Shown piece by piece: positions 33,185 through 57,893 of a DNA stretch of 64,000 nucleotides. The notes below the pieces were generated by a model. The model did no database searches and had not been told where the DNA came from. It saw only the letters and a list, made by a program, of their open reading frames with translations. Position numbers and translations under genes: made by a program. The stretch lies in the IMG/VR virus record IMGVR_UViG_2974557979_000001. One strand, written 5' to 3'. The stretch is from a virus. Lineage: Duplodnaviria; Heunggongvirae; Uroviricota; Caudoviricetes; Straboviridae. The number at the start of each line of letters is the position of its first letter. Position 1 is the first letter of the stretch.

Positions 33185-33290
33185 AACAATTACTCTTTTA
33201 CTCATAGACCCACTATAGGTCTACTCCTGTATATATTTATAGCAAAAACGAGGCCGAAGCCTCGTTATAATATTTTTGCTGTAAAGTCAA

Positions 33291-52046: not shown

Positions 52047-52454
52047 TCATCTTGCTAAAATTTTAGGCAACAGTTGCCCCATTGTTTTACGTGCATGTGA
52101 CGGAATCTGTGAGATCGGGACATATTTAAAATCATCCATTTCACGTATAGTCCGTCCGTTCTTAACGAAAGTTGATGCACAATAGCATTCTTCCGCTACT
52201 GGGTAATCTTGCCCTACATAGAGGAATAAAGCAAGGTTTTTTGTTTTCGTGTAATCGAGAACACCCAGACTAACCAATTCCTCCGCGAACACTTCAAATC
52301 CTGTTTCTTCGAAGCATTCGCGGATCGCCGCGTCAATATGAGTTTCGCCCTTTTCAACATGCCCCTTCGGAATATCCCAATGGGGCGTTTCAGTGGCATG
52401 GCCCATCAACACGGCACCATCTTTAACAAAGATAATACCCGCTGATAGTTCCAT
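52047..52454 (-). CDS. Nudix hydrolase
   Basis: Nudix box GHVEKGETHIDAAIRECFEETG. Confidence 0.8.
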   Translation of the reverse strand: MELSAGIIFVKDGAVLMGHATETPHWDIPKGHVEKGETHIDAAIRECFEETGFEVFAEELVSLGVLDYTKTKNLALFLYVGQDYPVAEECYCASTFVKNGRTIREMDDFKYVPISQIPSHARKTMGQLLPKILAR

Positions 52455-52948: not shown

Positions 52949-53234
52949 AGATTTCTTCGAAATCCTCACAATCAGGCAAATACGTTTCACAGAAGGTGCA
53001 AAGCGTAAAGAATGCAGGTTGACGAATACCAGGATTATCCGGTAGATACATCCAGAAGGTGTTAGCAAACACGATGAATGTTTTCAGGTTTTCGGTGGTA
53101 ATTTCGCTAACACCATCATACCCGGATTGATTGATCGCGCGTTGCAGTGGCACCTCGTACTGTTCGCAATAGTCGGCATAATGATCGCTTGTTACAAGGC
53201 CATTAGCCATTTTAATCAAATCGACGATTTTCAT
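52941..53234 (-). CDS. hypothetical protein
   Basis: ORF. Confidence 0.45.
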   Translation of the reverse strand: MKIVDLIKMANGLVTSDHYADYCEQYEVPLQRAINQSGYDGVSEITTENLKTFIVFANTFWMYLPDNPGIRQPAFFTLCTFCETYLPDCEDFEEIYG

Positions 53235-53566
53235 GATTTTACATATTCCACTTTAACAGGTTTTGCAACAAATTTATCTTTGGTGCGCCCATGACCATTA
53301 CACAGGTCACATTCTTTGTTGAAATCTTTCATATCTTCGACCCATCCAGAATCTGGCAACCCAGACGGATATGCGTTATAACGAATGGTTTCATAACCTT
53401 TTCCGTTGCATTTCGGGCAAACATGAGGACGTTCTTTTTTAGCAGACTCTGCCAGTTCGCGAAGGGTGGTAGAACTACCATAAGCCCGACACATGTTTTC
53501 AAAGTCTTTTAAAGTCATTCTATAAACATCAATGACGTTATATTTTTTGCCGGATGGTTTAGCCAT
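53231..53566 (-). CDS. DnaJ-type zinc-finger protein (CxxCxGxG x2)
   Basis: CPKCNGKG ... CDLCNGHG; start set to MAKPSGKK. Confidence 0.45.
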   Translation of the reverse strand: MAKPSGKKYNVIDVYRMTLKDFENMCRAYGSSTTLRELAESAKKERPHVCPKCNGKGYETIRYNAYPSGLPDSGWVEDMKDFNKECDLCNGHGRTKDKFVAKPVKVEYVKS

Positions 53567-53806
53567 AATATATTTCTCACTTAAAGAATTTTTTGATGAA
53601 AGAGATAGCAAGGCCGATACCAAAGAAAATTAAGTAACCTTTTCCGTCACCGTGCGCCAAAACATAGAGTGAGCTGCCGTATGCGATGAGTTCTGCGATG
53701 TTCATTAAGTTTCTCATGATATCCTCCTTTTTCTATATTAAGTATCTTACCATAATATAAACCAAAGTCAACAACAAAGTTTTATCAACCCACTTATCAC
53801 CAGTCA

Positions 53807-54012: not shown

Positions 54013-54552
54013 TCAGTTTTTCAACATCCAAAGTTGCGGAGGACAATCTTTAGAAGCGATTAGACGATCCAGGCGGGACATAACCCGACGATAACCGTCG
54101 TATTCAAAATTAATTTTTGGTGGAACGTAGTTGACCTGGATTGTTTTTCTGTTAGCTAAAGAAACATACTCAGGGATCACCGTTCGTAACCGTATAGCGA
54201 TCACTGGCTTCTCTTCGCCTTCGTTAAAGAACATTTGAACAGTTATAGGACAAGCAAAGATTTTACCATTTACCCGACGATAAACAATAACTTCCTGTGT
54301 CCCTTCTGTTTTGGCCTTCACAGCGTAGGTTAGAACATAACACGAATAATGATTTGCTAGACTCATCATGATATCGCGATAAGTTTCAATATCTTTTTTA
54401 ATCGATACTGAACGGTCTTTAAAGCGATCTGAAATGTGGTCAGCAGTAGCCGCTACCTTGATTGTATACCAGTCACCTAACGCGCTAGTAAACGCCTCGC
54501 TAACTTCTTTTCGTACACTGTTAACAAGATACATTAAACGTGTTCTGTTCAT
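54013..54552 (-). CDS. hypothetical protein
   Basis: Start set to MNRTRLMYLV. Confidence 0.45.
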   Translation of the reverse strand: MNRTRLMYLVNSVRKEVSEAFTSALGDWYTIKVAATADHISDRFKDRSVSIKKDIETYRDIMMSLANHYSCYVLTYAVKAKTEGTQEVIVYRRVNGKIFACPITVQMFFNEGEEKPVIAIRLRTVIPEYVSLANRKTIQVNYVPPKINFEYDGYRRVMSRLDRLIASKDCPPQLWMLKN

Positions 54553-54559
54553 ATAATCC

Positions 54560-55183
54560 TCACTGATTTTTGAAGTATTCGATCTGACGCAAACGCTTTT
54601 CAGCGGCGGCTTTCGAATCGTATTCACCAAGTTCTTTTGTGCGATCGTGATTCAAAACAACCCACTTATCGCCACGCTGTTCAATGTGTTCTGTAATATC
54701 TTTTAACGACTTATCCAGATCCAGTGATTCAGCCTCTTCACAGATAATAGTCAAATCCACGGGCAGTGTCAACAACCTTTTCACTCCGCTGATATCATCA
54801 AGCATCGAATCGTATGCAAGGGTTACGTGCGGCTTGTAATCCGGATAATCGTATGTTGCGCCAGCATCAATAGAATCTTTGAAACGGCTATGCAGGTATT
54901 CAGATTCCAGGATCCCTACAATAGTGCTACCGTATTTTGTGTCCCACTTTTCAACATCAACCAGTTTAGCAGGTTCTGTGATGTCCTGTTGCGGGAACAA
55001 ATCAACCGTTTTCCGGCTGTATACGATCGTTGTATGCATCTTTTCGGCTGAAACAGCATTCTTTGTGATACCTAATGTCTTTTGAACATTTTTCAAAGCC
55101 TCACATGAAGCCTGATCGAATTTAGCACACATGTAGATACCAGGATCTACAACAGGTTTTGTGATTTCAAGAAATGATTTCAT
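54560..55183 (-). CDS. 57B: 2H phosphoesterase (Acb1/57B-like; LigT superfamily)
   Basis: Two H-x-T-x motifs (HTTIVYS and HVTLAYD) about 70 aa apart; gene sits next to 57A and gene 1 exactly as T4 57B/acb1 does. Confidence 0.6.
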   Translation of the reverse strand: MKSFLEITKPVVDPGIYMCAKFDQASCEALKNVQKTLGITKNAVSAEKMHTTIVYSRKTVDLFPQQDITEPAKLVDVEKWDTKYGSTIVGILESEYLHSRFKDSIDAGATYDYPDYKPHVTLAYDSMLDDISGVKRLLTLPVDLTIICEEAESLDLDKSLKDITEHIEQRGDKWVVLNHDRTKELGEYDSKAAAEKRLRQIEYFKNQ

Positions 55184-55234
55184 AAAACACCCCAATAAAA
55201 AAGGGGCCGTAGCCCCTTTGTAATAAATTTGTTT

Positions 55235-55507
55235 TTACGCTTCTTCGCCAAAGGCGGCTTCATCTTCCGCGACTTTTTCGACTTCAACGGAAGGGATCAG
55301 AGCGGATACCGCGCCAATTACCGCTTCTGGGGTTACTGGCTGGCTTGCGTCAATACCCAGTACCGAACACAGGTCGGACAGAAGTTGACGATGAACAGAG
55401 AGTTCACTTTCTTTTTGCGCGATAACTTCGTTCAGATCGAATGCGCGGCCTTTCAGTACCAGTACTTCATTTTGCAGTTTTTGAATATCAGACATTTTAT
55501 TACCCAT
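55235..55507 (-). CDS. 57A: gp57A-like chaperone (coiled coil)
   Basis: Small acidic coiled-coil protein in the 57A position between 57B and gene 1; the start could be 55507 or 55495. Confidence 0.5.
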   Translation of the reverse strand: MGNKMSDIQKLQNEVLVLKGRAFDLNEVIAQKESELSVHRQLLSDLCSVLGIDASQPVTPEAVIGAVSALIPSVEVEKVAEDEAAFGEEA

Positions 55508-55509
55508 TG

Positions 55510-56205
55510 TTAAAATTTAAAAGTATCGAGCACTTTGCTCTTTAGTTGTTTCAAAGTACCTTCGTTAGTGATGATACTATCTCCAGGTTGAGGTGTCAAA
55601 CCTTTTTCCGTGGAATGTTCATCAACAATTCCGGTATCCTTTACAATAAACACAAACTTAGCACCTAAGCGTTTTAGGTATTTGTATTCGTGTTCTTGAC
55701 GACAGTCAGTGACCAGAAGATGGTTGTATTCGTCACCAGTATATTTATTGACGAATCTTTCCAGTGTGTAACGAACCCAAACCGTGTTATCATACTTGCA
55801 TACGATATCAGTTCCAAACACTTGCATCAAGCGTCTGATACTCCAGGGAGTATCGTTACTCATAATCAGGTTATCAATATCATCAGGACTATAGACAATA
55901 TTGTATCCACGTTCTTTGAGGATTTCAAGCCCGATTTTGAAAATATTTAGAACATCTTCATTAGACATCACAAGAGGTTTCTCTCGATCGCCTTTGTAAA
56001 AAATAGCATCCGGATCAGAATATTGTCCTTCAATCATATTGCGAATGTATGGTTTATCGTAACCATATCGCTGCATTGCTATTCTTAGCGTTCTTTTGAT
56101 ACCAAATGCCAGTGCTTCACACTGAACATCATTGTACGCCTCTTGAATAAATTTAGCAACCGTATCTTTACCAGTTCGCTTTTTTCCACTAATCACATAA
56201 ATCAT
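55510..56205 (-). CDS. 1: deoxynucleoside monophosphate kinase gp1
   Basis: P-loop ISGKKRTGKDT, SIRRLMQVFGTDI, VTDCRQEHE, ITNEGTL are collinear with T4 gp1. Confidence 0.9.
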   Translation of the reverse strand: MIYVISGKKRTGKDTVAKFIQEAYNDVQCEALAFGIKRTLRIAMQRYGYDKPYIRNMIEGQYSDPDAIFYKGDREKPLVMSNEDVLNIFKIGLEILKERGYNIVYSPDDIDNLIMSNDTPWSIRRLMQVFGTDIVCKYDNTVWVRYTLERFVNKYTGDEYNHLLVTDCRQEHEYKYLKRLGAKFVFIVKDTGIVDEHSTEKGLTPQPGDSIITNEGTLKQLKSKVLDTFKF

Positions 56206-56735
56206 TAGCTCATTCTCTTTTGAGAAGTGACTACTTTTCCGTCAATTTCAACTTCCATATGAAGGAAGCCAAAAGTTGCCATACACGTAACCGCTTCATC
56301 ACTATCGTTAGTATAACCCAATTCAACCTCACCCAAGTTTGTTGGGAAGGCACCATAAAATCTAAATGTGGCGATCGTTTTCATCTGGGAGTTATCCAGG
56401 ATATGCACAGCGAATGATTGCTTAGGATCATCCCACGCAACAGAGTTAAACTCATTGTAATCGTTTGTGCTCAACATCCATATGTAAATCCCAAGATACG
56501 ATCTCATTTCCTCATCGACTACAAAGCGGATCATCAAAGGATCAAACTCAAAAGCCGAACCAGGTACTTTACCTCGAACCATCATATTTGCAGGAATATC
56601 AACTGCTGGGAGGTTCATTGATGGTAGTGTAACCCCTTGAACTTGTAAAGTCAAACCTTTCATGTAACTGTTATCAGGAATATCAACCCGAAAGTTTGTA
56701 GGTGAGATTTGGTTTAAAATCATTTCTGTAGACAT
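56205..56735 (-). CDS. 3: tail completion/sheath stabiliser gp3-like
   Basis: 176 aa (same length as T4 gp3), located after gene 1 as in T4; CTAAATAG late-promoter-like motif upstream. Confidence 0.55.
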   Translation of the reverse strand: MSTEMILNQISPTNFRVDIPDNSYMKGLTLQVQGVTLPSMNLPAVDIPANMMVRGKVPGSAFEFDPLMIRFVVDEEMRSYLGIYIWMLSTNDYNEFNSVAWDDPKQSFAVHILDNSQMKTIATFRFYGAFPTNLGEVELGYTNDSDEAVTCMATFGFLHMEVEIDGKVVTSQKRMS

Positions 56736-57104: not shown

Positions 57105-57893
57105 ATGACTCACTTGAAAAAATTCAAAGAATTTCTGACCGAAGGTAAAACCCTCGCTCGTACCGTAGCACGTGGTCAACGCGCTAAAACTTCCGATAAA
57201 CATTCAATCGGTTTTCTTCACTTCAAACATGGTTCTGATTTCGAAGTTTTAGCACCGGATTCTCACGATCTGGCATACTTCGGTAAAAACATTGTACGTT
57301 TGAAAGGTATGACTACTGGTAAAGTTCAAGCGGCTTATGTCGATTGGGCTAAAGGTACTGTTTCTTTCTACAGTGGCAATCCGGATGATGATCTGGATTT
57401 CGACAAACCAGAAAAATTCAAAGCTGCTACTCTGTATGAAGAGGCGGAAGAAAATCTGGATCTGTATAACCAGTTAGCAGAAGATTTCGAAATCGAGATC
57501 CCTATGGATGAAGCTCTGGTGAAAGGTAAAGTTTACAAACTCCCAAGCAACGATATGCGTCTTCTGTACACTGGGCGTTCTAAAACTAAAGCAAGCGGTG
57601 AATATGCAGTGTTTACCGTAGTCGATGCTTCCGGCAAACCTCGCCTGGTATCTGGTAAAAAATTCACCCAGGAATATAAAGGCGATATGGTTTCTAAACT
57701 AGTTCTGGTTGAATCCGAAGATCTGAATGAAGCGGCTAAAGGCATTCGCGAAAAAGTTATTGCTGTGATGGTGAAACGCGGGTTTAACGAAAAAGATGCA
57801 GAAAAGATGGTTGACAAAAACCTGAAAGATGCTATGAAAGTTAGACCTGGTGCGACCCCTGGCAAACTTGCAGAAATAGTTAGCATCCTGTAA
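57105..57893 (+). CDS. hypothetical Lys/Asp/Glu-rich protein (262 aa), probably highly expressed
   Basis: Codon usage strongly biased to CGT/GGT/CTG/ACT/GCT/TTC/AAC; two consensus promoters plus a late-type CTAAATAC motif upstream; strong terminator downstream; inserted between gene 3 and gene 2, which are adjacent in T4. Confidence 0.6.
   Translation: MTHLKKFKEFLTEGKTLARTVARGQRAKTSDKHSIGFLHFKHGSDFEVLAPDSHDLAYFGKNIVRLKGMTTGKVQAAYVDWAKGTVSFYSGNPDDDLDFDKPEKFKAATLYEEAEENLDLYNQLAEDFEIEIPMDEALVKGKVYKLPSNDMRLLYTGRSKTKASGEYAVFTVVDASGKPRLVSGKKFTQEYKGDMVSKLVLVESEDLNEAAKGIREKVIAVMVKRGFNEKDAEKMVDKNLKDAMKVRPGATPGKLAEIVSIL

Follow-up and report, generated by a model that had tools for sequence, protein, structure and literature searches.

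The 2H phosphodiesterases of the Acb1 family are small enzymes that need no metal ion and break the 3'-5' bonds in second messengers such as 3'3'-cGAMP, cUA and cA3. The enzyme of phage T4 (gp57B, NP_049750) counters antiphage signalling that is based on cyclic oligonucleotides (CBASS) by acting on AMP-containing di- and trinucleotide signals, and in the T4 and FBB1 enzymes a C-terminal lid (residues 145-152) shuts over the ligand through W147 (PMC9117128). Deletion of this lid abolishes the activity of T4 Acb1; lids can be situated at either terminus, PDE-9 having an N-terminal one, and the specificity is determined by the core and not by the lid (Doherty et al. 2025). We analyzed a related gene in a stretch of 64,000 nucleotides (here called the window) of a Straboviridae virus, IMG/VR record IMGVR_UViG_2974557979_000001. 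The gene lies on the minus strand at 54560-55183 and encodes CPT_Matisse191 (YP_009194435.1, here Matisse191), a protein of 207 amino acids. Its core belongs to a known family, of which it is an ordinary though mis-annotated representative. The novelty lies in the architecture, in which an Acb1 devoid of the Trp lid is fused to a very widespread, unstudied phage mini-domain.

Compared to T4 Acb1 and FBB1 Acb1 (7T26/7T27), Matisse191 has the Pfam family, the 2H fold, the catalytic tetrad, the stacking residues, the glutamate E141 and the locus in common, at approximately 40% identity. It differs from them by an N-terminus that is five residues longer, by Lys in the place of W147 and by a folded module of 42 residues after the lid-equivalent segment. 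The second relative is the 2H enzyme PDE-9 of phage BCSR5 (9Q2G/9Q2Y; Doherty et al. 2025), whose core is likewise Acb1-like and devoid of a C-terminal Trp lid, with the first catalytic His also at residue 50. PDE-9 is only about 19% identical to Matisse191, bears its own N-terminal lid of 15 residues and lacks a C-terminal module.

Round the gene, a stretch of 2.8 kb agrees completely (100% identity) with Klebsiella phage Matisse (Straboviridae, Slopekvirus; NC_028750), and dozens of KP15-like phages share at least 99% identity with this stretch. A previous sequence-only reading of the window had placed an Acb1/57B-like 2H phosphoesterase in the conserved 57B-57A-gene 1 position and had noted that it is longer than its T4 counterpart. 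The reading frame is present exactly as it was described, from the ATG at 55183 to the stop codon at 54560-54562 on the minus strand; it is a complete coding sequence of Acb1 core and C-terminal module, with 207 residues versus 152 in T4 57B, and the one-strand gene order gp3 / gene 1 / 57A / 57B is that of T4. An alternative TTG start at 55195 was ruled out, as the homologues begin with MKSF and the annotated ribosome-binding site (55189-55192, minus) fits the ATG.

The Pfam family Acb1 (PF23474) matched residues 15-159 (54707-55141, minus) with 160.9 bits (E 2.1e-47, cut-off 27), corresponding to profile positions 2-142 of 144. The protein also matched PHROG 755 (E 1.9e-49), which carries the label "RNA ligase", and its best sequence match in the Protein Data Bank (PDB) was FBB1 Acb1 (7T26, E 3.6e-20). 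The Pfam family 2_5_RNA_ligase2 (PF13563) reached 14.8 bits, under its cut-off of 27. The full-length AlphaFold2 model had a mean predicted local distance difference test score (pLDDT) of 87.9, with values mostly above 90 in the core. With this model as query, the top Foldseek matches were FBB1 Acb1 7T27 and 7T26 (E 7.6e-14, template modelling (TM) score 0.79), followed by the Acb1-like PDE-9 of Burkholderia phage BCSR5, 9Q2Y/9Q2G (E 7.6e-10, TM score 0.70), and LigT-type proteins appeared with E ~1e-4 and a TM score of ~0.45. A search of NCBIfam with Matisse191 matched nothing. Since the gene position and the catalytic residues point the same way as the sequence and the predicted fold, we are highly confident that Matisse191 belongs to the Acb1 family and is not a LigT-type 2'-5' RNA ligase, and a comparison that the sequence-only reading had proposed for telling the two apart thereby comes out on the side of Acb1. 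That reading had further regarded Acb1 as an enzyme against both CBASS and Pycsar, the resistance to phages that relies on a pyrimidine cyclase. The first half of this statement stands and the second does not, since the activity on cCMP and cUMP is that of the unrelated Apyc1 with its metallo-β-lactamase (MBL) fold (PMC9117128); cleavage of cUMP would therefore be the wrong assay. No MBL family was matched in the Pfam scan of Matisse191, whose fold is 2H, unlike that of Apyc1.

The protein is labeled "hypothetical protein" in GenBank and "RNA ligase" in RefSeq. The latter name is wrong and represents a mis-transfer. The Acb1 orthologues of Slopekvirus, of T4 (NP_049750) and of many other phages carry the same RefSeq or Pharokka-type label; the PHROG 755 label is the source of this systematic mis-annotation, and one record says "metallopeptidase".

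To compare single residues, Matisse191 was aligned with T4 Acb1, FBB1 Acb1 and 12 closer homologues, and the residue roles were taken from Hobbs et al. 2022 (PMC9117128). The catalytic tetrad H50, T52, H119 and T121 (T4 H44, T46, H113 and T115) is intact and invariant in the 15 sequences. Its residues lie in the first HxT motif H50-T51-T52 (55028-55036, minus) and the second HxT motif H119-V120-T121 (54821-54829, minus); these open the HxTx motifs HTTIVYS (residues 50-56, 55016-55036) and HVTLAYD (residues 119-125, 54809-54829), both of which had been recognized from the sequence, and the histidines align with those of T4, a check that had been suggested together with them. The base-stacking residues Y17, W80 and Y113 correspond to T4 Y12, W74 and F107, and the base-contacting E152 corresponds to T4 E141.

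The equivalent of the T4 lid, residues 152-165 (ESLDLDKSLKDITE; 54689-54730, minus), is a linker in Matisse191. It contains no aromatic residue, has a model pLDDT of ~76, and the chain runs on into a folded domain. The Trp lid characterizes the T4/FBB1 subgroup and not the Pfam family. In its absence, the active site in the Matisse clade must close in another way. A potential candidate is found at the other terminus: residues 1-14 (MKSFLEITKPVVDP; 55142-55183, minus) are conserved within the clade, with 9-11 of the 14 residues shared even when the identity of the core drops to 50-58%, at a model pLDDT of ~50. They may represent an N-terminal lid or a targeting peptide.

The extra region that the greater length had suggested is real and forms a discrete C-terminal domain, as evident from the homologues, the alignment and the model. 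By length, the nearest Acb1 homologues form two classes, one of 204-208 residues with the tail and one of 157-177 residues without it; the latter are 54-80% identical and end right after "...LDLDKxxxDIT[EG]". The tail, residues 166-207 (HIEQRGDKWVVLNHDRTKELGEYDSKAAAEKRLRQIEYFKNQ; 54563-54688, minus), alone matches phrog_3684 (E 9.4e-11), and both the full-length and the tail-only model (pLDDT 86.7) predict three β-strands followed by a helix. A Pfam scan of the tail alone gave noise only (FAM25 and DUF6276, both under threshold), a PDB profile search with the module gave nothing significant, and Foldseek against viral models returned uncharacterized proteins only. In all likelihood the tail is an independent domain that is under selection.

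Free-standing homologues of the tail with 45-66 residues occur in Ackermannviridae, Aeh1, phiAS5, KVP40 and Yersinia phage phiR1-RT; an example is MKTFGEFLTEWDGLATDNKEIVEFVEKRGDKWVVLDHTKTKVLGTHDTKADADAQLRAIEANKHS in Salmonella phage GG32. Miniproteins of 45-70 residues such as Aeh1 ORF165c, KVP40.0311, phiR1-RT g134 and the open reading frames (ORFs) of the Ackermannviridae tRNA cluster (phrog_3684 region) are 47-61% identical to residues 166-207 and have the same predicted β3-α fold. They differ from the tail in being free-standing, often between tRNA genes, and many have basic C-terminal tails. In Ackermannviridae and phiR1-RT we observed stand-alone modules between tRNA genes at 2516-2716 of locus L002, 2447-2644 of L003 and 3474-3632 of L012. 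A profile search with the module in 1.84 billion representative proteins, clustered at 50% identity, yielded 3651 clusters at E<=1e-3, of which 488 remained at E<=1e-10. The top-scoring match (P0142) was discarded as spurious, being a repetitive protein without a true module; among the 149 real top matches, 42 have at most 80 residues and 78 have more than 150. The family DUF2188 (PF09954) did not match the Matisse tail even at E<=10, and its N-terminal 35 positions were matched by 6 out of 74 members of the module family (best 25 bits, cut-off 22). We regard the module family as very large, uncharacterized and distantly DUF2188-like.

The history of the fusion gives a further hint towards selection. 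In a neighbour-joining tree of the cores the tail-bearing proteins are scattered, and the tail-less P0007 and P0017 nest among tail-bearing groups, while the tail-less P0013 still ends with "DITEH...". This topology indicates that Acb1 lineages lost the module through several independent deletions. No split-off module gene was found downstream in the tail-less relatives at loci L015, L005 and L006, where a homologue of the 179-residue Matisse190 follows immediately as the next gene. A candidate for a split pair was rejected: the 48-residue module P0108 had been considered on the 175-kb contig of the tail-less P0015, and the places read are unrelated phage contigs in which its neighbour is a protein of 2351 residues. 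A second fusion of Acb1 and module, P0162 (190 residues), has a T4/FBB1-like core, sits in the 57A-adjacent slot and also lacks the lid Trp. Its junction PLTE/HIEKRGDEY (the slash marks the border) is nearly the same as in Matisse191, with [IL]TEHIE[KQ]RGD common to both. Proteins that still have the tail conserve it at least as well as the core, with 83-88% identity in the tail at 58-81% in the core (P0006: tail 86%, core 58%), and the tail persists in over 100 Slopekvirus genomes as well as in RB43-like phages. A domain that is dispensable but selected when present shows the behavior expected of an accessory domain.

The partners to which the module is joined point in a certain direction. 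Pfam scans of 74 multidomain carriers, taken from the top-scoring module matches only, found Phage_portal_3 in six, DUF2213 and InPase in four each, Peptidase_S78_2, Mu-like_Pro and LysM in three each, and Peptidase_S78, Acb1 and 2_5_RNA_ligase2 in two each; ART-PolyVal, cREC_REC, a cytidylyltransferase-like domain, phage lysozyme and Phage_scaffold occurred once each. Three modules follow the portal domain in P0188 and the prohead protease in P0143, the latter with acidic linkers between them. P0166 combines DUF5662, ART-PolyVal, the module and a nucleotidyltransferase, and P0203 combines GIY-YIG, an Acb1-like 2H domain and the module. 2H domains fused to MuF or portal domains are probably packaged and injected (Iyer et al. 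2017, PMC5512222), and in these polyvalent, MuF and portal fusions 2H is joined to modules typical of virion-packaged proteins. P0203 and P0247 present the pairing of 2H and module, as in Matisse191, inside giant polyvalent proteins; in contrast, Matisse191 is a small two-domain protein in the T4 57B slot and not in a head-gene cluster. We also noted a weak similarity to Acb1 (E 0.028, both HxT/S motifs) in residues 495-589 of the Pam3 cyanophage portal protein (PDB 8hds_A), which fits the portal-2H fusions of Iyer et al. 2017 (PMC5512222).

We propose the following explanation. The two HxT motifs (H50/T52 and H119/T121) would cleave the second messengers of CBASS without a metal ion, and this cleavage would stop the activation of the CBASS effector of the host; homology to the described enzymes suggests this metal-independent activity on cyclic oligonucleotides for Matisse191. 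The segment after the core connects it to the separately folding β3-α module of 42 residues, which would be a non-catalytic accessory adaptor that tethers the enzyme to another macromolecule. The function of the tail as tether or adaptor is a tentative proposal drawn from its associations. As its partner, a constituent of the interior of the phage head or else phage DNA seems the most plausible to us, because the module is repeatedly joined to portals, prohead proteases or scaffolds and to "polyvalent" proteins predicted to be injected. Taken as a whole, a working member of the Acb1 family with an accessory adaptor module and a closure that does not need the Trp lid appears to be probable.

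Several points weigh against this explanation. T4 W147 is replaced by K158 (LDLDK) in Matisse191 and in the whole clade, and with the lid Trp missing the activity or the specificity could differ substantially; a different substrate range had also been considered in the sequence-only reading. The Matisse protein is not named in the main texts of Hobbs 2022 and Doherty 2025 or in the supplementary tables of Doherty. Regarding the tail, its repeated loss implies that it is dispensable for the basic function, and matches in Pfam, PHROG and viral models gave no assigned function for the module. The link between module and head proteins is a case of guilt by association, seen as it is among the top-scoring matches only. 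Finally, residues 164-207 have an isoelectric point of 6.6 and a near-neutral charge, which does not favor binding of DNA.

An alternative that makes the head the destination itself is that the tail, perhaps aided by the N-terminus MKSFLE, directs the protein to the capsid, so that Acb1 would be packed in the head and injected with the DNA; a T4-type prohead protease could possibly cut at I163-T164-E165/H166. In that case the destruction of CBASS signals would begin with the first seconds of the infection. Apart from the fusions of the module to portals, prohead proteases and scaffolds, the argument rests on both ends of the protein. T4 IPI starts with MKTFKEF and its propeptide ends with TITE/A, to be compared with MKSFLEI and the junction DITE/H in Matisse191, which is the only ORF of the window that starts with MK[ST][FY]x[ED]. 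Stand-alone modules of the Ackermann type start with MKTFGEFLTE, and [LIM]-x-E directly precedes the domain in every T4-like or Ackermann-type stand-alone module of alignment A4. These [LI]-x-E residues could be merely structural, however, and the N-terminal match is short: F4 is present, but position 7, like position 4 an aromatic residue in T4-type capsid-targeting propeptides, is Ile, Glu is missing at position 10, and tail-less relatives have the same N-terminus. To our knowledge, 57B has not been reported as a head protein of T4, which counts against this alternative. With the T4 capsid-targeting sequence, targeting requires residues 4 and 7, and cleavage by gp21 takes place behind a Glu (PMC9026906). 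The 57B/Acb1 orthologue of Jiaodavirus ValerieMcCarty03 was detected in virions purified in caesium chloride with 18/17 spectra, similar to gp2, but this orthologue is tail-less and the preparation held more than 130 proteins (PMC13119998). The KP15/KP27 paper contains no virion proteome. Altogether we consider such a loading of Acb1 into the head unlikely, although it ranks first among the specific roles that we can suggest for a tethering tail.

We found no evidence of a late promoter upstream of Acb1 or of the stand-alone modules, which also speaks against loading into the head, although the T4 late promoter motif TATAAATA is uninformative here, with one occurrence in the window and none in the Ackermann-type loci. 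This one occurrence within the 64 kb (33234-33241, minus) compares with 3.95 expected by chance. Either the window holds mostly early or middle genes or the late promoters of Slopekvirus differ.

In a broader version of this idea the module, perhaps with the IPI-like N-terminus, would be a general "ride-along" tag that loads small effectors into the capsid of portal-terminase phages, with Acb1 pre-packaged and injected. Acb1 might then be freed from the tag by the prohead protease at ITE/H, and the thousands of stand-alone copies would represent an unrecognized class of internal or ejected head proteins. We hold such a general tag to be unlikely.

A different protein of the window, CPT_Matisse195 (57105-57893, plus; 262 residues; phrog_7322), lies between gp3 and gp2 and has no Pfam match. 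It starts with MTHLKKFKEFLTE/GK, close to the capsid-targeting propeptides of T4 IPI and IPIII (MKTFKEF...ITE/A), and this is the only ORF in the window with a propeptide motif of this type. From this resemblance Matisse195 is a candidate internal head protein.

The position of the tail suggests yet another role, namely an action in cis, in which tail and linker would influence the active site of their own chain, stand in for the Trp lid and set the substrate range, for example by sparing 2'3'-c-di-AMP so that Panoptes stays untriggered. The tail is attached exactly at the place of the C-terminal lid of T4 and FBB1 Acb1, in a clade with Lys for the lid Trp, and P0162 as the second fusion of Acb1 and module is likewise without the Trp. 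A substitution of this kind agrees with the possible location of lids at either terminus and the loss of activity of T4 Acb1 upon loss of its lid (Doherty 2025); the finding of Doherty et al. that the core sets the specificity argues against it. So do the close relatives that are tail-less, also lack the Trp and end after DITE, from which it follows that the clade works without the tail. The module moreover occurs alone and on unrelated proteins, the linker is of lower confidence in the model, and as the model has a predicted TM score of 0.70, no docked pose is supported. An action in cis seems rather improbable to us.

According to another notion, the tail would bind nucleic acids in the manner of an AP2 or DUF2188 domain and so keep the enzyme at the DNA or RNA of the phage or the host. 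We judge this to be improbable. Still more doubtful is the idea that the tail is a neutral leftover of an accidental fusion with a neighbouring miniprotein gene. The module is a free gene in many phages and was deleted in several Acb1 lineages, as one would expect of a leftover, but its retention in Slopekvirus and RB43-like phages, a conservation above that of the catalytic core and a junction that is common to the distant Acb1 P0162 make it very improbable. That Matisse191 is an RNA ligase or a 2',3'-cyclic phosphodiesterase of RNA repair of the LigT/ThpR type is hardly credible: the 2H superfamily fold with its HxT/S motifs, the PHROG 755 label and the presence of LigT among the weaker Foldseek matches are in its favor, but the ligase score is under threshold and the structural likeness much weaker than to Acb1, the T4 orthologue in the same locus is an experimentally defined Acb1 (PMC9117128), and these phage 2H domains are not associated with RNA ligases (Iyer 2017, PMC5512222).

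An adaptor-bearing Acb1, as preferred by us, is of practical interest. Slopekviruses (KP15, Matisse, Miro) are considered for Klebsiella therapy, and a counter-defence enzyme of the Acb1 type, at present concealed by the public name "RNA ligase", bears on their host range. The protein raises the question of how an Acb1 works without the Trp lid and how this affects the immune signals that are cut, including the Panoptes decoy 2'3'-c-di-AMP. It equally raises that of the role of the appended module, which is among the larger uncharacterized phage domain families; since the module sits here on an easily assayed enzyme, Matisse191 could provide a convenient system for finding this role.

Immediately upstream of the Acb1 gene, on the same strand, lies the homologue of the tail-fibre chaperone gp57A (55235-55507, minus; phrog_1002, E 3.5e-23), and a terminator-like hairpin (55200-55219, minus), computed and also annotated in the record, separates the two genes. 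They are preceded by the homologues of the gene 1 dNMP kinase (55510-56205, minus; phrog_139, E 1.4e-48, and record annotation) and of the tail completion or sheath stabilizer protein gp3 (56205-56735, minus; annotation and profile match).

Downstream, CPT_Matisse190 (54013-54552, minus; 179 residues; phrog_7718) fills the slot where T4 has ipI, and every relative examined has a conserved homologue of it next to Acb1. Neither Pfam nor NCBIfam gave a match for Matisse190, and its N-terminus does not resemble a capsid-targeting sequence. Inside the Acb1 ORF, just upstream of the part coding for the tail, we observed a near-consensus sigma-70 promoter-like site (54744-54772, minus; TTGACA, 17 nucleotides, TATTAT; 11 out of 12 matches). 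A separate expression of the tail from this site is unlikely, as the sequence has no in-frame start codon before the domain; the site therefore probably serves the downstream gene of 179 residues. Further downstream, the same early-gene block encodes a small protein with a DnaJ-type CxxCxGxG zinc-finger region (53231-53569, minus; weak, 25 bits) and a NUDIX hydrolase in a position like that of T4 NudE (52047-52454, minus).
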